DNA of 64,000 nucleotides. Source: Promethearchaeota archaeon (GTDB lineage Archaea; Asgardarchaeota; Lokiarchaeia; Sigyniarchaeales; SOKP01). Numbering within the stretch: position 1 is the stretch's first letter; each line of letters begins with the position of its first letter. A model generated the notes under the pieces. It saw only the letters and a program-made list of their open reading frames with translations. It had not been told where the DNA came from and ran no database searches. Below, piece after piece: positions 18,697 to 31,849 of the stretch. A program made the translations under genes and the position numbers. The stretch lies in contig JAEOTZ010000058.1 of assembly GCA_016839585.1 (NCBI GenBank), positions 129,948 to 193,947 of the forward strand. The letters run 5' to 3'.

Positions 18697-20637
18697 ATGA
18701 AAGATGAGAATAATCATCGGATTGGATACTATGCTTGTCAGTGAGGTATAAATATTAAAGGTAAAGTGGATTGCGGTAAACTAGTAGAATTTGCTAAAGA
18801 GATGGACGATGTCGTCATTTCAAAGAGCCATGCCTTTTTGTGTACTGAAAGTGGCCAGAATGAAATTATAGAGGATATAAATGAAAAAAAATTAACCAGT
18901 ATAGTTGCTTCTGCTTGAACACCTCGAACTCACGAACCTATTTATCGAGATTCAATTGCAAAAACAGATCTAAATCCATACTACTTTCAAATGGTTAATG
19001 TAAGAGAACATTGCTCATGGTGCACTGAAAGTAAGGAAGAGGCATTAGAAAAAGCAAAAATCTTAGTAAGGAGTGGAATCGAGAGAGCTAAAACTTTAGA
19101 AGTGGTACCTATTAAAACAGTTCCGGTAGAAAAAGCCACTTTGGTAGTTGGAGGAGGAATTGCAGGAATGAATGCAGCTTTAGATCTTGCAAATGCAGGA
19201 ATAAAAGTCTATTTAGTTGAGAGTAAAACGACAATTGGCGGAAGAATGGCTCAATTAGATAGAACATTCCCTACAGATGACTGTGCCATATGAATTTGCG
19301 GTCCAAAAATGCTAGAAGCCAATAGAAATGAAAATATTGAAATTCTCAGTTATGCTGAAGTGAAAAATGTAGAAGGTTGCGTCGGAAACTATGAAATAGC
19401 TGTGGAAATGAAACCACACTTCGTAACAAATGACTGTAATGGCTGTGGAGCGTGTTCAGAAGTTTGTCCTGTTTACACTTCTAACTATTTTGATGAGAAT
19501 CTTGGAGCTCGTAAAGCTATTGATATTGCTTTTGGTCAAGCTGTACCCTTCTTATACGATATTCAAAGAGATTGTTGCGTGGAATGTTTTAGTTGTGTAG
19601 AAGCCTGTGAACTAGACGCTATAGATTTTAGTCAAATACCAGAAGAAGTGAAATTTAAGGTAGGTACTATCATTATTGCCACGGGGTGGGATATCTATGA
19701 GCCTTATGGTGAATATGGCTATGGTGAATTCGATAACGTAATTACACAAGCCCAATTAGAACGAATGTTGGCACCTAACGGTCCATTAGAAGGCCATGTA
19801 AGGAGAATTTCAGATAATAAAAAACCAAAAGAAATTGTATTTATTCAATGTGTTGGAAGTAGAGATACGGAAAGAACTTATTGTAGTGGCGTATGCTGCA
19901 TGTTAGCACTTAAGAATGGGAAACTGATAAAAGAAGAATTTCCCGACGCAAATATTACTATTTGTTATATAGATATGCGAACTAACGAAAAAGGTTTTGA
20001 AGAATATTATCAACGAGCGAAAAACTCCGATATTCGTATGATTCGAGGTAAAGTAGGTGAGATATCTGAAGATCTTGAAACTAAGGATGTCAAAATACGC
20101 GTATACTCCTCTTTAACGGATGAAATTATTAAAATTGATGCTGATTTAGTTGTATTGTCTAGTGCAGCATTACCTTCAAAAGGGACAGAACAAATTGCTA
20201 AAGTACTGAATTTGGATGTAGATCGAAATGGATTTCTAACTGAGAGCCATTTTGGACTTATGCCACAAGAAACAAAGACAAAGGGTATTTTTATTGCCGG
20301 CTTTGCTCAAGGACCGAAAGATATTTCATATTCTGTCTCTCAAGCTAGAGCTGCAGCAAGTAAAGTCGCAGAATTAACAGCTCCAGGAAAAGTAGATATT
20401 GAATTAATAACTGCGGAAATAGATAAAGATTATTGTATCTCTTGTAGAAGATGTGAAAAAGAATGTCCTAAAGGTGCTATTAAAATTGTTGATATCGAAG
20501 GAGCTATTGTTGACGAAATAAATTGTGATGGATGTGGTATATGTGCTACTTGCTGTCCTACGCAGGCTATTGATATACGATATTATAGAGATTATCAATT
20601 ATATGCTGAAATTGAGGGGATATTAGGAGGTGATTAA
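18697..20637 (+). CDS. hdrA: Heterodisulfide reductase subunit A, selenoprotein (Sec16, Sec74, Sec199; 646 aa)
   Basis: One frame from ATG 18697; TGA at 18742 (CQUGINI), 18916 (SAUTPRTHE) and 19291 (DCAIUICGPKM), each matching a Cys in the Cys-HdrA at 25110. Confidence 0.93.
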
Positions 20638-20641
20638 ACAG

Positions 20642-21085
20642 GTGGATAATAATTTAAACATACTAATGTTTGCTTGTTTAAAATGAGGATATGGTGCTGC
20701 TGATCTAGCGGGTGTGTCACGTTTTAAATATACACCTTCGGTTAAAATAATAAAGGTACGATGCACTGGACGAGTTGATGTAAAACATATCTTATATGCG
20801 GTTAAATCTGGAGCTGATGGTGTTATGGTGGTTGGATGACGACCAGATGAATGTCAATTTAAGAGTGGAAATTTTAAAGCTCAGACTCATGTTGATTTAG
20901 CGAATAGGATCTTAGATCGAAGAGGTTTTGGAAATCAAAGAGTCAATCAATATTGGCTGAGTAGTGCTGAATCTGAAAAATTGGTGAAGAGTGTGGAAGA
21001 TACTCTTGAGAAAATTAGAAAGATTGGACCCAATCCATTAAACTTACAAGAAATAAAAGGAGTAAAAAAAGGAAAAATCCATTAA
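20642..21085 (+). CDS. mvhD: MvhD/VhuD [2Fe-2S] subunit, selenoprotein (Sec15, Sec66; 147 aa; absent from ORF track)
   Basis: GGAGGTGA SD then GTG; FACLKUGYGAADLAG...RCTGRVD...GADGVMVVGURPDEC; TGA at 20684 and 20837. Confidence 0.93.
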
Positions 21086-21088
21086 CTA

Positions 21089-21156
21089 CTCCCATAGAAT
21101 GATTCTTATAAAAAAATTATTGTTATAAGAGAACTATCCACGCGATGGAGGGAGTT
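21089..21156 (+). promoter_or_regulatory. Putative eukaryote-like SECIS element
   Basis: ATAG-A-ATGA-T-TCTTATAA-[AAAAATTATTG]-TTATAAGA-GA-A-CTAT, closed by CTCCC/GGGAG, directly after the mvhD(Sec) stop. Confidence 0.7.
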
Positions 21157-21208
21157 TTAAAAAATTTATAAAAAAGTTATAAAAAATTATTATAAAATTG
21201 AAGGAAAT

Positions 21209-22714
21209 ATGGTTCAAATAATAAATAGTAAATTGTTCGAAAAAATCTCTCCTAATGATTTGATCGAAGCTACATATAAAGCTTCAGGAAATTTCCAAGT
21301 AAGAGCATTTTTTGAAGCTAAAGATGAAATCTTAAAAACAGGCAAATATACAGAAGAAGAATTCTATGAAATCTTAGATGGAATGGTTGATGCAGAAACT
21401 GAACGATACTTAATTTTAAATAAAGTAAAGGGAAAGAAACCTCTTTTTTTAGAAGAAATTGCTGAAATAATCAAAGAATTTCCTCCTGAAAATGTAATAA
21501 GAGATATCATTTACTTAAAGGAACAAGGATATATTGAGGAACATATTGAGATTAAAACTAAAACTGTTATAAAAAAAATTAAGGGAGAAGAAAAGGAAGT
21601 TGAAGAAAAAGAATATTTTTATAGATATCAAGTAAAGGAGCTTCCAGATAATTTTATTGAACATTATTTTGAACCAATTTCTATTGTATATGATGCTGGT
21701 GTATGTTGTCAATGTGGATGGTGTGCTTCTATTTGTCCTGTCAATGCAATTGCAGTCACTGCAGACACTCTTGAGATAGATGATGAGGTTTGTATGAAGT
21801 GTGGATTATGTTATTCTGTTTGTCCTCGTTCCTTTTCAATTGAACAAGCTTTATTGAGTATGAAAAAAATTGATAAATCTCTTCAATTTTCTGAAAAGAT
21901 TAACGGATATCTTAATACATATTCAGCCACAACAACTAAAGATAAGATTAAAAAAGTACGCCAAGATGGAGGAATAGTAACCTCCTTACTTGAGTATTTA
22001 TTAAAGAATAAATTAGTTGATGCTATTGTAGCAGTGCAACATTCAAAAGATTTCTGGAAACCAGAACCTGTTATTGTAGATAATTTAAACGATTTGTATA
22101 AAACGGGTGGAACTAAATATGCAAATGCATCGACTTTAGCTATTATAGGTCAAACAAAAAATTATAAGAATATAGCTGTTGTTGGAACACCATGTATGAT
22201 TAATGCAATTGAAAAAAGTAATTTATTTCCAACTAGAGTACCTTTTTTCAACAACATTAAATATAAAATTGGGCTTTTTTGCATGGAATCTTTTCCTTAT
22301 GAAGGTGTGCTTAAACTAATCAAAGAGCAATTTGATAAAGATTTTACGAAAGTAACAAAGATGGATATAAGCGGTGGAAAATTTATCATTTATTTGGATT
22401 CAGGGGAGGATTTAAGAGTCCCCCTTAATAATGTTAAATCCTATGCTCGAGCCAATTGTCATTATTGTGAAGATTTAACTTCTGATTATGCAGACATTTC
22501 TGTAGGCTCAATAGGCTCTCAAGCAGGTTGGTCTTCCGTTATCACTCGTTCAAAGAAAGGTGAAGAAATTTTCCAAGGAGCTGTTGAAGTAGGTTTAATT
22601 GAGTTTCAGAATCTAAAAGATGTTAAACCAGGACTAGGTCTTTTAGAAAGAATTGCTGATACTAAAAGAAAAAATTGTAAACCAATTGAATTAATTAAAA
22701 ATCAAAAAACTTAA
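21209..22714 (+). CDS. FrhB-family protein with 2x[4Fe-4S] and ~150-aa N-terminal extension
   Basis: CCQCGWCASICP, QDGGIVT, GTKY, VGTPC, GLFCME and CHYCED motifs. Confidence 0.9.
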   Translation: MVQIINSKLFEKISPNDLIEATYKASGNFQVRAFFEAKDEILKTGKYTEEEFYEILDGMVDAETERYLILNKVKGKKPLFLEEIAEIIKEFPPENVIRDIIYLKEQGYIEEHIEIKTKTVIKKIKGEEKEVEEKEYFYRYQVKELPDNFIEHYFEPISIVYDAGVCCQCGWCASICPVNAIAVTADTLEIDDEVCMKCGLCYSVCPRSFSIEQALLSMKKIDKSLQFSEKINGYLNTYSATTTKDKIKKVRQDGGIVTSLLEYLLKNKLVDAIVAVQHSKDFWKPEPVIVDNLNDLYKTGGTKYANASTLAIIGQTKNYKNIAVVGTPCMINAIEKSNLFPTRVPFFNNIKYKIGLFCMESFPYEGVLKLIKEQFDKDFTKVTKMDISGGKFIIYLDSGEDLRVPLNNVKSYARANCHYCEDLTSDYADISVGSIGSQAGWSSVITRSKKGEEIFQGAVEVGLIEFQNLKDVKPGLGLLERIADTKRKNCKPIELIKNQKT

Positions 22715-23877: not shown

Positions 23878-25113
23878 TTGTATAATGATACATTAGATTA
23901 TTTAGAAAAGATATATGAACCAGATTTAAGAAATCTTCTAAAAAGATGCTATCAGTGTGGACGGTGTAGTGGAGTATGTCAATTAAGTAAAGTTCAAAAA
24001 TATGCACCAAGTAAAATAATTGAACTAATATTAGAAGGTTTTGAAGATAGAGTACTAGAAAGTGGCGAATTGTGGGATTGTTTAACTTGTAATCAATGTC
24101 TTAAGGATTGTCCCGAAGACATTAATTTCGCGGATATCGTAAGGATTGCAAGATATAAAATGAGACATTTTGCTAATCAAAATCCTGACGAAATTGTTGC
24201 TCATAAAGGGATTTATACAACTATTTCTGAAATCATGAGTCGTCCCTATATAACGCCAGAAAGATCACTTGACTGGGTTCCAAAAGGATGTAAAATATCA
24301 GATAAAGGCAATGTATTATATTATGTAGGGTGTTTACCTTTTTTTAATTATGAATTTGAGAATTTAGATTCAATTGCGACAAGCACATTAAAAATATTAT
24401 GTCAAATTGAAAAAGAACCTATTGTAGTATTTAAGGAAGAAAATTGCTGTGGTCATGATATTTATTGGGGTCAAGGTAAATTGAAAACCTTTATAAAGCT
24501 CGCTATGAAGAATATGGAGATGTTTGAAAAAGCAGGTATATCCAAAATTGTAACCGCTTGTGCTGAATGCTATAGGACATTTAAAGTTGATTATCCTAAT
24601 ATATTTGAAGATTTTAATGATAAATTTGATGTGAAACACGTTATTGAATATATTTATGAAAAATGGAAAGAAAATCTAATTCAATTTCATAATCCAAATA
24701 AAAAAAGTGAAAAAATACCTTTCACATATCATGATCCATGTAGGCTAAGTAGATTTTTACCTAAAGATAATAATATTATGGAAAAAGTTCGAGAGATCTT
24801 TAAAGAATTCAAAGACTTAGGTTATGATTTTAATGAAATGGAACATAATCAGAAAAACGCTTTATGTTGTGGAGTAAGTTCTTGGATGAATTGTAATGAA
24901 AAATCTAAAGCACTAAGATATAAAAGAATGTTAGAAGCAAAATCAGCGGGAGATATAATGGTTACTTCCTGTCCAAAATGTAGAATACATCTTAGCTGTC
25001 TTCAGGATGATTTTGAGGATATTGCTTCAATTGAAATTTTAGATTTTTCAGAATTTCTAATTAACCATATAAAGTTAATAAAACCTGATATAAAAGGTGA
25101 GGAAAAGAAATGA
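23878..25113 (+). CDS. HdrD/GlpC-like Fe-S oxidoreductase (HdrC-like plus CCG domains)
   Basis: CYQCGRCSGVC, CLTCNQCLKDCP, NCCG, YHDPC, LCCG and SCPKC motifs. Confidence 0.88.
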   Translation: MYNDTLDYLEKIYEPDLRNLLKRCYQCGRCSGVCQLSKVQKYAPSKIIELILEGFEDRVLESGELWDCLTCNQCLKDCPEDINFADIVRIARYKMRHFANQNPDEIVAHKGIYTTISEIMSRPYITPERSLDWVPKGCKISDKGNVLYYVGCLPFFNYEFENLDSIATSTLKILCQIEKEPIVVFKEENCCGHDIYWGQGKLKTFIKLAMKNMEMFEKAGISKIVTACAECYRTFKVDYPNIFEDFNDKFDVKHVIEYIYEKWKENLIQFHNPNKKSEKIPFTYHDPCRLSRFLPKDNNIMEKVREIFKEFKDLGYDFNEMEHNQKNALCCGVSSWMNCNEKSKALRYKRMLEAKSAGDIMVTSCPKCRIHLSCLQDDFEDIASIEILDFSEFLINHIKLIKPDIKGEEKK

Positions 25114-28100
25114 TGGAAGGTTCTGTTTTAGTTATAGGTGCTGGAATTGGTGGAATCCAATCCGCTTTAGATTTAACTGAATTAGGCTTTAAAGTCTATT
25201 TAGTGGATAGAACTCCCTCAATTGGAGGTCGTATGGCTCAACTTGATAAAACATTTCCTACAAATGATTGCAGCTTATGTATTCTTGCCCCTAAAATGGT
25301 AGAAGTATTTCGAAATCCAAATATAGAATTAATGACGTATCATGAAGTGCAAAAACTTGCTGGTAAACCAGGAGATTTTACTGTTACTGTTCTTAAAAAA
25401 CCTCGTTATGTTGATGAAATAAAATGTAAAGGATGTGGAGATTGTGCCGCTAAATGTCCAAAAATAGAGGTACCTAATCTCTTTGACATGAATTTAGGTA
25501 AGAGAAAATCAGTATATATTCCTTTTCCTCAAGCAGTTCCTCCAGTCTATCTAATAGACCCTGAATTATGTTTGAAACTTACTAAGGGGGTATGTGGTGT
25601 ATGTGCTAAAGTATGTCAAGCGGAGGCTATTGATTTTGATCAAAAACCTCAAGAAATAGAATTAAAAGTTGGAGCGATTGTAGTTGCTACTGGATTCGAT
25701 ATGCCTGCAAAAAATTTATCTTCACGGTGGGGTTATCATTATGAAAATGTAGTAAGCGCTCTTGAATACGAAAGGATTTTGTGTGCCTCTGGACCATTTG
25801 GTGGTCATGTTTTAAGACCAAGTGATCAGAAAGAACCTGAAAAAATAGCTTTTATTCAATGCGCAGGCTCAAGAGATTTGCATGAGGGGGTGCCTTATTG
25901 TTCTAGTGTTTGTTGCATGTATACTGCTAAAGAAGCAATAATAACGAAAGAACATTCTGATAACTCACAATGTTTTGTATTTCGACATGATATCAGAGCA
26001 TTTGGTAAAAATTTTTATGAATTTACGCAAAGAGCACAAAAAGAATATGGAGTAAAATATTTTCAAACTAAGATAAGTAAAATAGTAGAGGATCCGGAGA
26101 CAAACGATTTAATTATTCATTATGAAGATTTAAAAACAGGTACATTTCATGATTTTCAAGCTAATTTAGTTGTATTAGCGACTCCTTTAGTCCCCTCCAC
26201 AGGATCTAAAGATTTAGCAAAGATTTTAGAAATAGAACTGGATGAATATCACTTTTTCAAAGAAAAAGATTATTTTAATAAATCTAAATCAACTAAAGAT
26301 GGAATATATTTATGTGGATTCTGTCAAGGTCCGATGGATATACCAGAAACTGTTGCTGATGCAAGTGGAGTAGCAGGTCAAGTTGCAGCATTCTTGAATT
26401 CTGTTAAATTTGATCATATAAAAGAGAAGTTAGAAGTTCCCGAATTAGATATAAAAGCTACTGATGAACCAAGAATAGGGGTTCTAATCTGTCATTGTGG
26501 AATTAACATAGGTAAATATGTTCATGTACCTCTACTTGCTGAATATGTAAGAACTTTGCCTAATGTAGTTCAATGTGAAGATAATTTATACTCATGTAGC
26601 TCTGACTCGCAGACACGAATTAAAGAATTAATTAAAGATCACAAATTAAACCGATTTATTGTTGCTTCTTGCACACCAAGAACCCATGAAGCTTTATTTC
26701 AAGAAACCTGTCAAGAAGCAGGTTTAAATAAATATTTATTCGAAATGGTTAATATTAGAGATCAATGTTCTTGTGTTCATATGGACGATGCAGAAGCAGC
26801 AACCCAAAAAGCTAAAGATTTAATAAGAATGTCTGTTGCTAAATCAAGATTATTAAAACCTCTGAAAGAAGAATTATTAAAGATTACTCCAACCTCATTA
26901 ATTATCGGCGGTGGAATTGGTGGAATGAGTGCAGCCTTAAACATTGCTGAACAAGGTTTCAAAACATTTTTAGTAGAAAAAGAGAGCTTTTTAGGAGGAA
27001 ATTTGAATTACCTAAATGTGTTATACCCCATTGAAGAAAATGCTTCAGACTTCTTAAATGAGACTATCGAAAAGGTTAATCATAATAAAAATATTCAAAT
27101 CTTCCTAAATGCAAAAATTGGAGATATTAAAGGATATGTTGGTAATTACATCGTATCTATTGTTGATTCAAAAAATGAAACTCACGAATTAAGTATAGGA
27201 ACTATAATTGTAGCTACTGGAGGTAAAGAATATAAACCTAAAGATATGTTTCAGTATAAAAAAGAGAATAAAAATGTCATAACCCAATTAGAACTAGAAC
27301 AAAAACTAAAAGAAAAAGGGAAATCTTGGCTTGATGATATAAATAGAATAACAACAATTCTGTGTGTAAATGCACGGCAAGTTGAAGGAATAACCTATTG
27401 TTCTAACATTTGCTGTGGGAATTCTATTAAAAACATTGGACTCTTAAAAAAGTTAAAGCCTGAACTTGAAATTGCGGTACTTTATAGAGATCTTCAAATG
27501 GCTAAGAAAAAGTATGAAGAGTATTATCGTGAACGTAGAAAAGATGCTATATTTTTAAGATATGACTTGGATAATATACCAATCATCAGTAAAGTAAACA
27601 AAGATCCAGAAAAATACAATATAAAATTTTACGATACTAATCTCCAAGATTTCATAGAATTTAATACAGATTTAATTGTATTATCAACTCCTATGATTCC
27701 GGCGGATAATTTGGAAGAATTAGCAAAAATGCTTAAAGTTCCTTTAGATAGAAATGGTTTTTTCCTAGAAGCCCACGTAAAATTAAGACCATTAGATTTT
27801 GCCACAGATGGAATTTTCTTATGTGGATGCGCACAATGGCCAAAAAATATACAAGATACTATTTCTCAAGCAAATGGAGCTGCGGGTAGAGCAAGTAGAT
27901 TTTTAAGCGCCAAAGAAATTAAAACTTCGGGAATAGTTGCAGAAGTAGATCCAGTAAATTGCATTGGGTGTGGAAAATGTGAATCAGTATGTCCTTATAA
28001 CGCTATTGATATTTTAGAATCTGCAAAAGATTATGAGGAAGTAAGCTTAATTGTAAGAAAATCATTTGTTAATTCAGCCTTATGTAAAGGGTGTGGTACA

Positions 28101-28196
28101 TGCGCTGCAACTTGCCCAAATGGAGCTATATCTATAATGCAATACGATTTTGATCAAATAACTGCTATGATAGAATCATATTTATTAGAATTATAA
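25110..28196 (+). CDS. Large HdrA-like protein with two FAD domains (Cys-encoded)
   Basis: GAGIGG...DKTFPTNDCSLC; internal CHCGINI/CTPRTHE; second GGGIGG; C-terminal ferredoxin. Confidence 0.92.
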   Translation: MMEGSVLVIGAGIGGIQSALDLTELGFKVYLVDRTPSIGGRMAQLDKTFPTNDCSLCILAPKMVEVFRNPNIELMTYHEVQKLAGKPGDFTVTVLKKPRYVDEIKCKGCGDCAAKCPKIEVPNLFDMNLGKRKSVYIPFPQAVPPVYLIDPELCLKLTKGVCGVCAKVCQAEAIDFDQKPQEIELKVGAIVVATGFDMPAKNLSSRWGYHYENVVSALEYERILCASGPFGGHVLRPSDQKEPEKIAFIQCAGSRDLHEGVPYCSSVCCMYTAKEAIITKEHSDNSQCFVFRHDIRAFGKNFYEFTQRAQKEYGVKYFQTKISKIVEDPETNDLIIHYEDLKTGTFHDFQANLVVLATPLVPSTGSKDLAKILEIELDEYHFFKEKDYFNKSKSTKDGIYLCGFCQGPMDIPETVADASGVAGQVAAFLNSVKFDHIKEKLEVPELDIKATDEPRIGVLICHCGINIGKYVHVPLLAEYVRTLPNVVQCEDNLYSCSSDSQTRIKELIKDHKLNRFIVASCTPRTHEALFQETCQEAGLNKYLFEMVNIRDQCSCVHMDDAEAATQKAKDLIRMSVAKSRLLKPLKEELLKITPTSLIIGGGIGGMSAALNIAEQGFKTFLVEKESFLGGNLNYLNVLYPIEENASDFLNETIEKVNHNKNIQIFLNAKIGDIKGYVGNYIVSIVDSKNETHELSIGTIIVATGGKEYKPKDMFQYKKENKNVITQLELEQKLKEKGKSWLDDINRITTILCVNARQVEGITYCSNICCGNSIKNIGLLKKLKPELEIAVLYRDLQMAKKKYEEYYRERRKDAIFLRYDLDNIPIISKVNKDPEKYNIKFYDTNLQDFIEFNTDLIVLSTPMIPADNLEELAKMLKVPLDRNGFFLEAHVKLRPLDFATDGIFLCGCAQWPKNIQDTISQANGAAGRASRFLSAKEIKTSGIVAEVDPVNCIGCGKCESVCPYNAIDILESAKDYEEVSLIVRKSFVNSALCKGCGTCAATCPNGAISIMQYDFDQITAMIESYLLEL

Positions 28197-28214: not shown

Positions 28215-28652
28215 ATGCCAAAAGCAAAAACAAAAGTAATAAGAAAAGACTTTACTCCAGAAATACTAGTTTTTTGTTGTAATTGGTGTTCGTATGCAGG
28301 AGCAGATTTAGCAGGGGTTTCCAGATTTCAATATCCCCCTAACATGAGAATAATACGAGTAATGTGTTCTGGAAGAGTTGATCCTGCATTTGTAATAAAA
28401 GCTTTAAAAGAGGGAGCTGATGGAATACTCATCACAGGATGCCATATTGGCGATTGTCATTATATTTCTGGAAATGAGTATGCTCAAGAAAGATTTGGAC
28501 GATTACATGAAATAATAATTAAACAATTAGGTATTAATGAAAAAAGAGTCAGGTTAGAATGGGTAAGTGCATCAGAAGGAAAGCGGTTTGCTGATTTGAT
28601 CACAGAATTTACAAACCAAATAAAGGAATTAGGACCTTTGAAGGTACTTTAG
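28215..28652 (+). CDS. mvhD: MvhD [2Fe-2S] subunit (Cys version)
   Basis: FCCNWCSYAGAD, MCSGRVD and GCHIGDCHY motifs. Confidence 0.95.
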   Translation: MPKAKTKVIRKDFTPEILVFCCNWCSYAGADLAGVSRFQYPPNMRIIRVMCSGRVDPAFVIKALKEGADGILITGCHIGDCHYISGNEYAQERFGRLHEIIIKQLGINEKRVRLEWVSASEGKRFADLITEFTNQIKELGPLKVL

Positions 28653-29083
28653 TTAAAACCATTTAAAGATTAAAGAAGAATCCTGTTTTTCTTATAAATC
28701 TTAATTTTTTAATACCTATTTAAGAATAAATTTTTTTATATAAACCTCAAGTTCCATATTATCATAGCTGAATTCAATAAAAAATAGGAGTTAATATTAT
28801 TAATAACGATAAATGATAAGGAAAAATTTATCGATATTGATCAAAGTTTACTAAAGTGATAGCCATTTATTGAAAGAATTTTTGCTTTCAATAAAATATA
28901 TATGAAAGATTTTCAGAAATTTACTTTATTATTAATGGAATTCGACATTTTTGAGCATAATACTTAAATAAATGCTTTTACTTATCTTATGATTAGCACA
29001 TATTTTCTTGACCGAATTGTTAAGAAATTTTTCCAATAAAATTGAATAATTAAGTTATTACATTGTTCTATGAGGTAATTTCT

Positions 29084-31849
29084 TTGGAAGGTTCTGTGTT
29101 AGTAATTGGTGGAGGAATGGCTGGAATACAAACCTCTTTAGATTTAACTGAATTAGGGTTTAAAGTTTATTTAATAGAAAAAGAAGCATCAATTGGCGGT
29201 CATATGGCTCAATTTGATAAACAATTCCCTGCAAACGACTGTAGTTTATGTATGCTTGCTCCAAAAATGGTTGCAGTTTATAAGAATCCCAATATTGAAT
29301 TATTTACTTTATCTGAGATTAAAAAAGTTAGTGGAAACCAGGGAAATTTTAAAGTTTCGATAGTTAAAAATCCTAGATATGTTGACGAAACCAAATGTAG
29401 GGGTTGTGGAGATTGTACTGCGAAGTGCCCAAAGATTGAAGCTCCGAATATTTTTGACATGAATTTAGGAAAAAGGAAATCAATTTATATCCCTTTCCCT
29501 CAAGCAACTCCTCCTGTATATTTAATAGACCCGGAATTATGTTTATTTTTAAATAGAGATGTATGTGGGGTATGTAAAAAAGTTTGTAAGGGTGATGCAA
29601 TTAATTTTTATCAAAAATCTCAAGAAATTGAATTGAATGTAGGTGCTATCGTCGTTGCTACAGGGTTTGATATGCTTGGAGAAGAATTATCTTCAAAATG
29701 GGGGTATCAATATAAAAATGTGGTAAATGGTTTAGAATATGAAAGAATATTATGCCCAACAGGACCATTTGGTACACATATCTTAAGACCAAGCAATGAA
29801 GAAGAGCCTGAGAAAATAGCATTTATACAGTGTGCAGGATCTGGTTATCAAGAAAATCAGATTCCTTATTGTTCCCGTGTATGTTGTATGTATACAGCAA
29901 AAAATGCAATTTTAACAAAAATTTATGCCGAAACTCCTCAAATTACAGTTTTTAGACATAATATTCGGGTTTTTGGTCGAGATTTTTATGAGTATACTAA
30001 AAATGCTCAAGAAGAATATGGCATTAAATATATTAACAGTAAGATACAAATTATTGAAGAAGAACCAGAAACAAACGATATAATTATATATTATAGAGAT
30101 ATGAAATCTGGAGAAGATAAAACTTATAAAGCAAATTTAGTAGTTCTGGCAGCGCCATTGGTACCTTCAAAGGGGACAGAGAAATTAGCTAAAATCTTAG
30201 GAATTAAATTAGATAAATACAATTTTCTCCAATCAAAATCTTACTTTAATAAATCTTTATCAACTAAAGAAGGGATTTATCTATGTGGTTTTTGTCAAAG
30301 TCCCATGAATATTTCAGAAACGGTTGCTAATGCAAGCGGAGTTGCAGGGGAAGTAGCAACGATATTGAATCCAGTTAGATACTCGCAAATAAAAGAAAGG
30401 GAGATTAATATCTTACCAGAAGGGGATATAATTAAAATCACTCCAAGGGCATTAGTTATAGGTGGTGGAGTCTCTGGTATGACTGCTTCCTTAAATCTTA
30501 GTAATCAAGGATTTGAGACTATTCTTTTAGAAAAAGAGAATCAATTAGGAGGAAATATCAATTATATTAATGTGTTGTACCCTACTAAACAAAGTGCTCC
30601 AGATTTCCTTTTTAATATTGAAGAAGAGGTTAGGATCAATACAAATATTAAAATATTTTTAAATTCAAAAATTGAAAGTATTTCAGGGTCAATTGGAAAT
30701 TATGACGTATCATTTTTAGATATAAATGATAAAATCCATGATATTAGAGTCGGAACGATAATCCTTGCTACAGGAAGTCAAGAATTTAAACCGATAGGTC
30801 TTTTTCAATACAATAAAAATAATAAAAATGTTTTAACTCTTTTAGAACTAGAGAAAAAGCTGAAAAGTAAGGATAATTCTTGGCTTACCAAGATAAATCA
30901 TATTACTATAGTTTTATGTGTTAAAGCAAGACAAAAAGACGGATTCTCATATTGTTCAAATGTATGTTGTAATAATACTATAAAAAATATTGAAATTTTA
31001 AAGGAAATTAATTCAAAAATCAAAATACTCGTTCTATTCAGAGATCTTCATATGGCTAAAAAAGAGCTTGAAGATCTATTTAGTAAAAGGAAAAAAATCG
31101 CTGAATATATTAGATATAATTTAGAAAACATCCCTGAAGTTGTTAAGATGAGACAGAATCCAGAAAAATACATAATAAAATTGCGAGATGATTCTAATCC
31201 GGATAATATTATTGAATTTAATACTGATTTAATTGTATTAGCAACTCCAATGATCCCACCTGATGATTTAAAGGATTTGTCACATATGCTTGATGTTCCT
31301 CTTGATGAAAATGGATTTTTTATTGAAGCACATACAAAATTAAGACCTTTAGATTTTGCAGGGCATGGAATTTTTGTTTGTGGATGTGCACAATGGCCAA
31401 AAAATATACAAGATTGTATATCACAGGCAAATGCAGCAGCTGGTCGGGCAAGTAGATTCTTAAGTGTAAAACAAATTTCAACGACAAAATTGGAATATCT
31501 CTCATTTATGCTCTCTATTCAGTGTTTCTTCAAAGATATGAAAGTTAATGCTGAAAGATGTAATGGTTGTGGTAGATGCGCTGAAGTTTGTCAATTCAAA
31601 GCAATAACACTTACAGATTCTAAACAAGAATATGAGGATGTTAGTATTGCCGCTAAAAAAGCTATTATTAATCCTGCTATATGTAAAGGATGTGGAAAAT
31701 GTTCTGCAACTTGTCGATTAAAGGCAATTGATGCAAGACATTATGACTTTAAACAAATCTCTGCTATAATTGATCCATATTTTTTAGAAAAAGCAAAACC
31801 AGAGGAAAAATTTGATGATGGGACAACAGAACTTACAATAATTAAGTGA
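29084..31849 (+). CDS. Second large HdrA-like protein, lacking the internal Fe-S domain
   Basis: Paralog of the 25110 ORF; GAGGT SD then TTG at 29084. Confidence 0.88.
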   Translation: MEGSVLVIGGGMAGIQTSLDLTELGFKVYLIEKEASIGGHMAQFDKQFPANDCSLCMLAPKMVAVYKNPNIELFTLSEIKKVSGNQGNFKVSIVKNPRYVDETKCRGCGDCTAKCPKIEAPNIFDMNLGKRKSIYIPFPQATPPVYLIDPELCLFLNRDVCGVCKKVCKGDAINFYQKSQEIELNVGAIVVATGFDMLGEELSSKWGYQYKNVVNGLEYERILCPTGPFGTHILRPSNEEEPEKIAFIQCAGSGYQENQIPYCSRVCCMYTAKNAILTKIYAETPQITVFRHNIRVFGRDFYEYTKNAQEEYGIKYINSKIQIIEEEPETNDIIIYYRDMKSGEDKTYKANLVVLAAPLVPSKGTEKLAKILGIKLDKYNFLQSKSYFNKSLSTKEGIYLCGFCQSPMNISETVANASGVAGEVATILNPVRYSQIKEREINILPEGDIIKITPRALVIGGGVSGMTASLNLSNQGFETILLEKENQLGGNINYINVLYPTKQSAPDFLFNIEEEVRINTNIKIFLNSKIESISGSIGNYDVSFLDINDKIHDIRVGTIILATGSQEFKPIGLFQYNKNNKNVLTLLELEKKLKSKDNSWLTKINHITIVLCVKARQKDGFSYCSNVCCNNTIKNIEILKEINSKIKILVLFRDLHMAKKELEDLFSKRKKIAEYIRYNLENIPEVVKMRQNPEKYIIKLRDDSNPDNIIEFNTDLIVLATPMIPPDDLKDLSHMLDVPLDENGFFIEAHTKLRPLDFAGHGIFVCGCAQWPKNIQDCISQANAAAGRASRFLSVKQISTTKLEYLSFMLSIQCFFKDMKVNAERCNGCGRCAEVCQFKAITLTDSKQEYEDVSIAAKKAIINPAICKGCGKCSATCRLKAIDARHYDFKQISAIIDPYFLEKAKPEEKFDDGTTELTIIK

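Follow-up and report, generated by a model that had tools for sequence, protein, structure and literature searches.

A predicted two-selenocysteine VhuD encoded behind hdrA and followed by a lokiSECIS-type element in an Asgard archaeon

Results

The gap behind hdrA contains a vhuD gene with two in-frame UGA codons

The window, which denotes the whole stretch of 64,000 nucleotides analysed here, derives from the MAG of an Asgard archaeon (Promethearchaeota, Loki-type) with a genome of 3.45 Mb and 29% G+C. The features found at the locus are collected in Table 1. The upstream gene, hdrA, has in-frame TGAs at 18742 (Sec16), 18916 (Sec74) and 19291 (Sec199, the canonical CxxU site), and its part from 18991 onward matches NCBIfam HdrA2 with 646 bits. 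The same three Sec contexts were found in nearly all related loci. Only 4 nt separate the TAA of hdrA from the start of vhuD, and this adjacency to HdrA, which is characteristic of the FlpD family, is likewise present in the related loci.

Under translation table 11, there is no ORF of at least 60 aa in the vhuD frame at 20642-21085, which means that standard gene callers would leave this stretch empty. An earlier reading of the sequence only had placed in this apparent gap a 147-codon gene with a GGAGGTGA Shine-Dalgarno sequence, a GTG start and TGAs at 20684 and 20837. All of these coordinates agreed with our analysis, and every peptide string it quoted was found in the read-through translation. 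The same Shine-Dalgarno sequence is also kept in the closest relatives (L042-L045).

The read-through product matches Pfam FlpD (PF02662) over the entire domain (1-123 of 123 positions, 148.1 bits against a cut-off of 22.3, E 1.6e-43), which answers the profile search that had been proposed as a check. With the NCBIfam VhuD model (NF045873) it reaches 161.5 bits, under the curated cut-off of 215; the window VhuD is thus not a methanococcal VhuD equivalog, though it belongs to the same family. The proposed match to the Cys-type MvhD paralog starting at 28215 was reproduced with 39% identity over 130 aa (E 3e-36), both TGAs lying opposite Cys. The VhuD and MvhD chains deposited in the PDB are matched with E values from 5e-37 to 4e-27. 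The best match among solved structures is the VhuD from M. maripaludis (9sfi_K, E 4.7e-37, 128 residues aligned), whose deposited sequence contains X at exactly the two positions aligned with the TGAs. We take these X to stand for Sec, and the parallel drawn earlier with methanococcal VhuD carrying Sec at equivalent sites therefore holds. Moreover, C12, U15, C41, U66 and C71 of the window VhuD align with Cys of the paralogs and of the solved MvhD chains, and all five Cys/Sec columns of FlpD/MvhD proteins (CxxC, C-[ST]-G-R and G-C-x4-C) are thus occupied.

Table 1. Features in and around the hdrA-vhuD pair, numbered by position in the window
Feature	Positions	Strand	Basis or remark
hdrA, 646 codons, three Sec-UGA, TAA stop	18697..20637	+	read-through translation; upstream cistron of vhuD
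Shine-Dalgarno-like GGAGGTGA	20625..20632	+	9 nt 5' of the vhuD GTG (sequence)
vhuD/mvhD (FlpD family), predicted selenoprotein gene	20642..21085	+	147 codons, GTG start, TAA stop 21083-21085
UGA, predicted Sec15	20684..20686	+	codon 15, motif C-L-K-U-G-Y-G; TGA column invariant in ortholog alignment
UGA, predicted Sec66	20837..20839	+	codon 66, motif G-U-R-P-D-E-C; aligned with MvhD Cys67; TGA column invariant
lokiSECIS (type I eukaryote-like, AUGA_AA variant)	21088..21155	+	fold, genome-wide pattern, conservation in relatives, covariation
SECIS outer helix	21088-21093 / 21150-21155	+	fold
SECIS AUGA	21099-21102	+	13 nt past the vhuD TAA
SECIS 9-bp stem	21103-21111 / 21123-21131	+	ninth pair U-G
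SECIS 11-nt A-rich loop AAAAAUUAUUG ending in G	21112-21122	+	
AA after the SECIS stem	21132-21133	+	not canonical GA
FrhB-like protein, 501 aa (N-terminal extension, 2x[4Fe-4S], FrhB domain)	21209..22714	+	NCBIfam; synteny
Second FrhB-like protein, 369 aa	22719..23828	+	NCBIfam
Cys-type MvhD paralog, 145 aa	28215..28652	+	behind 1028-aa double-FAD HdrA-like gene

A lokiSECIS-type element lies just past the vhuD stop codon

Just past the stop codon of vhuD, an AUGA directly precedes a 9-bp stem closed by an 11-nt loop that starts with AAAAA and ends in G, which is the pattern of a lokiSECIS. The GA that follows the stem in the AUGA_GA core is replaced by AA. This replacement does not exclude the element from the lokiSECIS group because an AUGA_AA variant has been reported, namely for VhuU (PMC4989117) and for hdrA/frhD genes of Lokiarchaeia (PMC11227280). 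The ninth pair of the stem, U-G in the window, is U-U in the closest relatives.

The element was found behind all 15 orthologs examined and at two paralogous loci. In the alignment, 93% of the cells are paired and 9 of the 15 pairs show changes on both sides, the covariation in stem II coming mostly from the two paralog rows. None of 500 shuffles reached the observed value, and registers slid along the alignment pair at 46-60%. Searching the genome for the lokiSECIS pattern returned 11 hits, seven of them just behind UGA-containing ORFs: three two-Sec vhuD genes (including that of the window), one vhuU, one hdrA and two more on contigs C31 and C60. Rfam searches with the whole window at the gathering threshold, and with 21040-21210 at E values up to 10, gave chance-level matches only; Rfam has no model that recognises lokiSECIS. 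A side hairpin at 21138-21148 has two conserved C-G pairs, and we do not claim it, as its third pair appeared inconsistent across the orthologs when the alignment was inspected by eye.

The 3' end of vhuD varies among the relatives, as seen when 21086-21102 is compared with the orthologs. The window and its four closest public relatives have a TAA as the vhuD stop, 13 nt ahead of the AUGA. In most same-genus orthologs (L013-L026), the vhuD frame crosses the outer SECIS helix in its 5' arm, with the tail ...TTPAE, and ends at the UGA of the AUGA itself. The C-terminal tail in the window is frame-shifted relative to theirs; the nucleotide sequence of the outer helix is kept, and two of its pairs show compensatory changes with respect to the same-genus orthologs.

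Five Sec-UGAs fall within the hdrA-vhuD pair: hdrA has three of them and vhuD the other two, and their distances to the AUGA downstream range from 262 to 2357 nt. We found neither a further SECIS-like element belonging to the pair nor another pattern hit nearby. Together with the 4-nt spacer, this suggests that one SECIS probably serves all five UGAs.

Other lokiSECIS elements of the genome, outside the window, deserve a brief description. At C31:25965 and C60:22053, short UGA-containing ORFs are followed by perfect lokiSECIS, each with AUGA, a 9-bp stem, an A-rich loop of 11 nt whose last base is G, and then GA. One ORF encodes a small, hydrophobic protein in which the motif S-U-L-C occurs, and the product of the other has the motif T-U-T-L-A-F-C; these are possible further selenoproteins, perhaps Prx-like or new. 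On the minus strand of C59, an HdrA-like read-through ORF of about 696 aa, ending at about 33919, continues directly as a short tail similar to the C-terminus of a Sec-VhuD paralog (C45) and ends at the UGA of a lokiSECIS AUGA. There is no VhuD domain between the HdrA part and the tail, as if a deletion had joined hdrA to the 3' end of vhuD while keeping the SECIS.

FrhB-like genes follow the pair

Behind vhuD and its SECIS, an FrhB-like gene is present in 26 of 26 related loci. A second FrhB-like match (tblastn, at paralog level) comes just after the first in 9 of 12 public MAG loci, and the loci lacking such a match end too soon to show one. In the window, the two FrhB-like genes are followed by an HdrB/C-like gene with CCG domains. 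The window vhuD does not lie in a vhuDGAUB [NiFeSe] hydrogenase cluster of the kind to which the NF045873 group belongs. Conserved synteny is the basis for a putative partnership with VhuD, and judged from the gene order, the two downstream FrhB-like proteins, not a [NiFe] hydrogenase, are most likely the input module of the pair.

An alternative partner that we considered for the Sec-containing VhuD is a [NiFe(Se)] Mvh/Vhu hydrogenase with genes at another locus, the situation in Methanococcus. Among characterised proteins, the closest homologs are indeed hydrogenase-associated, and methanogen MvhD is known to serve several different input modules (PMC12350162, PMC13518236). [NiFe] large subunits are encoded on contigs C49 and C59, where a Sec-VhuU piece, which has a SECIS of its own, comes after the one on C49, but on these two contigs only: NiFeSe_Hases had no match on the 194-kb contig of the window (C47). 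Since the hydrogenases could be served by at least three further Sec-VhuD paralogs of the genome, and the FrhB-like gene stands directly after vhuD in all 26 loci, we regard a hydrogenase as a less likely partner of this VhuD. The name VhuD, as used in the sequence-only reading, suggests a closer link to a hydrogenase than the FrhB-like neighbours and the contig free of [NiFe] hydrogenase bear out.

The spacer between the SECIS and the first FrhB-like gene (21156-21208) is very AT-rich and contains TTTATAAAA- and GTTATAAAAAA-like boxes as well as a GAAGGAAAT ribosome-binding site. These boxes raise the possibility that the FrhB-like genes may have their own promoter and are not co-transcribed with hdrA-vhuD. 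The idea that the SECIS marks the split point of an MvhD-wHTH-FrhB fusion was dropped for want of sequence-level support: when the N-terminal extension and ferredoxin region of the FrhB-like protein (its initial 230 residues) were compared by BLASTP with a 274-aa MvhD paralog (C10), the match had only E = 9.

Further downstream, the window encodes a Cys-type set. The 1028-aa HdrA-like protein ahead of the Cys-type MvhD paralog (25110-28196) has two FAD/NAD-binding Rossmann regions according to Pfam. On the other side of the paralog lies a 928-aa protein (29063-31849) that we judged from its sequence to be HdrA-like; all of these are Cys versions. Hence, a Sec-type and a Cys-type HdrA/MvhD set stand 7.5 kb apart on one strand. 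In the relatives, the Cys-type matches about 7.5 kb downstream of the vhuD ortholog have longer open frames (265-279 aa). Extending the window paralog by reading through its TAG was rejected, the sequence past the TAG being AT-rich and full of stops.

The UGA codons are conserved and followed by sequence under purifying selection

Among 30 related genomes searched, an ortholog with two in-frame TGAs was found in 15 of the 18 genomes of the same genus, at 66-78% identity. Both TGA columns are invariant in all 13 aligned same-genus orthologs, and both TGAs are present in 12 of 12 further public Asgard MAG loci at 73-95% identity, which goes far past what chance would give. The relatives bear the label Promethearchaeota. 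In comparison with the same-genus orthologs, dN/dS was 0.05 between the TGAs and 0.12 past the second, with dS saturated; these values indicate that the sequence past the apparent stops is protein-coding. As in archaeal selenoproteins, the UGAs align with Cys or Sec, are conserved among orthologs and precede sequence under purifying selection. The comparisons support the prediction of a true, functionally constrained selenoprotein gene of the MvhD/VhuD family with two Sec codons.

We also weighed the possibility of a decaying pseudogene, that is, an MvhD paralog with two nonsense mutations that has left its work to the Cys paralog at 28215. Table 11 gives a frame with two breaks and no ORF call, and Cys-type paralogs are plentiful (13 FlpD matches in the genome), but decay is hardly compatible with the same two TGAs in all 25 related loci (the 13 aligned orthologs and the 12 from public MAGs), whose protein identity goes as low as 66%, with the low dN/dS past the TGAs and no other stop or frameshift, or with a conserved SECIS and a complete Sec machinery; we give this explanation almost no credence.

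That machinery was located elsewhere in the genome. Next to SepSecS lies a tRNA-Sec whose anticodon is UCA and whose T-arm contains a 31-nt insertion, and EFSec is encoded 3 kb away. ARAGORN reported no tRNA-Sec in the candidate loci, and the Rfam tRNA-Sec model gave 34.6 bits for the intron-containing sequence against a cut-off of 47, a shortfall explained by the insertion. We accepted the tRNA-Sec because of its anticodon, its adjacency to SepSecS and the identical description in PMC4989117. The PSTK candidate is matched over its full length with 145.6 bits, below the curated cut-off. Two tandem selD genes with one in-frame TGA each lie outside the window (C5:26616-28714 of the same genome); a duplicated selD has been mentioned for Loki- and Thorarchaeia (PMC11227280). 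We counted tRNA-Sec, PSTK, SepSecS, EFSec and SelD as present.

That UGA has been reassigned throughout the genome to an ordinary amino acid (e.g., Trp, Gly or Cys), as several genes with in-frame TGAs might suggest, can be practically dismissed: TGA ends 153 of 1238 long ORFs (12%), about as often as TAG; the in-frame TGAs of the recognisable genes examined fall in known selenoprotein families and face Cys where aligned; the TGA-containing genes examined have the SECIS motif behind them; and a dedicated UCA-anticodon tRNA-Sec adjoins SepSecS.

Discussion

The best explanation for the locus, to which we assign a probability of about 0.93 from sequence comparisons, is that vhuD encodes a two-Sec VhuD connector within an hdrA-vhuD pair, with a lokiSECIS shared by both genes and likely with FrhB-like proteins as the input. 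The gene would form the second cistron of hdrA-vhuD, its product acting as an MvhD/VhuD-type [2Fe-2S] electron connector, and both of its UGAs would be decoded as selenocysteine. During translation, the lokiSECIS presumably brings the archaeal EFSec-tRNA-Sec complex to the ribosomes.

As a rule, a [2Fe-2S] cluster has four ligands of the Cys type. Sec15 aligns with Cys16 of MvhD from M. marburgensis, which, together with Cys202 and Cys205 of HdrA, has been described as additional conserved cysteines between the cluster and FAD (PMC13580544). By this alignment, Sec15 is not at a [2Fe-2S] ligand but at a conserved non-ligand position. As there are five conserved Cys/Sec columns for four ligands and Cys16 is the additional one, Sec66 is left by elimination as a probable ligand of the cluster. 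We looked in open papers for an explicit list of the [2Fe-2S] ligands of MvhD and found only the designation of Cys16 as an additional Cys. Thus, the claim of the sequence-only reading that both TGAs fall at Cys positions of the [2Fe-2S] site likely applies to Sec66 and fails for Sec15. R67 and E70, which follow Sec66, match the conservative replacements of His by a basic residue and of Asp by Glu noted in PMC13580544.

The Sec of the partner protein could be involved as well. Cys205 of HdrA corresponds to the canonical Sec site, which is Sec199 in the window hdrA, and density consistent with a Cys-Sec197 selenylsulfide was observed at this place of HdrA from M. maripaludis (PMC13518236). Sec15 and the Cys196/Sec199 pair of HdrA would sit in the space separating the [2Fe-2S] cluster from FAD, where they may act as a selenol/thiol relay. 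The mechanism of the electron transfer from cluster to flavin is called unknown in the studies of methanogen structures (PMC13580544, PMC12350162), and the Sec-for-Cys variation in Asgard VhuD and HdrA could provide a natural probe of it.

By analogy to the FdhB/ElpB-MvhD-HdrA complexes (PMC12350162), the HdrA-VhuD pair may serve an F420-type input module. It is tentatively conceivable, if somewhat doubtful, that an electron-bifurcating complex in a non-methanogenic Asgard archaeon is built around the Sec-rich HdrA-VhuD and driven by FrhB, independently of a hydrogenase, with F420H2 or another flavin/deazaflavin as the donor. For genome analysis, the practical consequence is that standard callers miss vhuD and break hdrA into fragments, and any metabolic reconstruction of this MAG would be wrong if it left out the pair.

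The hdrA-vhuD layout with a lokiSECIS is already known from Mariotti et al. 2016 (PMC4989117) and Huang et al. 2024 (PMC11227280), the latter covering 227 Asgard genomes and 1439 selenoproteins. In Lokiarchaeota, VhuD of about 150 aa contains two Sec, a multi-Sec HdrA that always ends in UAA or UAG is always located directly upstream, a single lokiSECIS after vhuD is believed to act for as many as six UGAs across about 2 kb, and the tRNA-Sec has a 31-nt intron in the T-arm (PMC4989117). The window shares with these Asgard HdrA-VhuD (FrhD) pairs the two-Sec VhuD, the multi-Sec HdrA upstream on the same strand, the very short spacer, the TAA stop of hdrA, the single SECIS with AUGA, 9-bp stem and 11-nt AAAAA...G loop, and the 31-nt T-arm insertion. 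It differs from them in nothing of kind; in its sub-lineage, vhuD ends at a TAA 13 nt before the AUGA. In the supplements of PMC11227280, a search for the nearest MAGs by accession prefix and isolate name found only other bins of the same sample series. The window adds one more case to the published Asgard layout of one eukaryote-like SECIS for two cistrons, which is not new and matters for the origin of eukaryotic Sec decoding.

VhuD from Methanococcales (M. jannaschii, M. maripaludis; Wilting et al. 1997 as cited in PMC4989117) belongs to the same family, and its two Sec stand where those of the window VhuD do (CxxU and GU...EC), with about 50 codons between them; the adjacency to hdrA and a SECIS with AUGA in the 3' UTR are shared as well. 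However, the methanococcal SECIS is of the euryarchaeal type and hdrA has its own element (PMC4989117), whereas one lokiSECIS was found for the pair in the window. Furthermore, methanococcal vhuD sits in the operon of the Vhu [NiFeSe] hydrogenase, while the window vhuD adjoins FrhB-like genes.

The Cys-type MvhD/ElpC proteins from methanogens (5ODC_D, 9SW2_D, 7BKB_F and 8RVU_F) have the same fold family and the five conserved Cys/Sec columns in common with the window VhuD. They function as the HdrA-bound [2Fe-2S] connector for input modules comprising hydrogenase, formate dehydrogenase or the F420-dependent Elp. Unlike the window VhuD, they have Cys at both Sec positions, and their GCH(H/I)GDCHY motif corresponds to GURPDECQF in the window, with replacements of His by Arg or Lys and of Asp by Glu that agree with the conservative substitutions reported for this family (PMC13580544).
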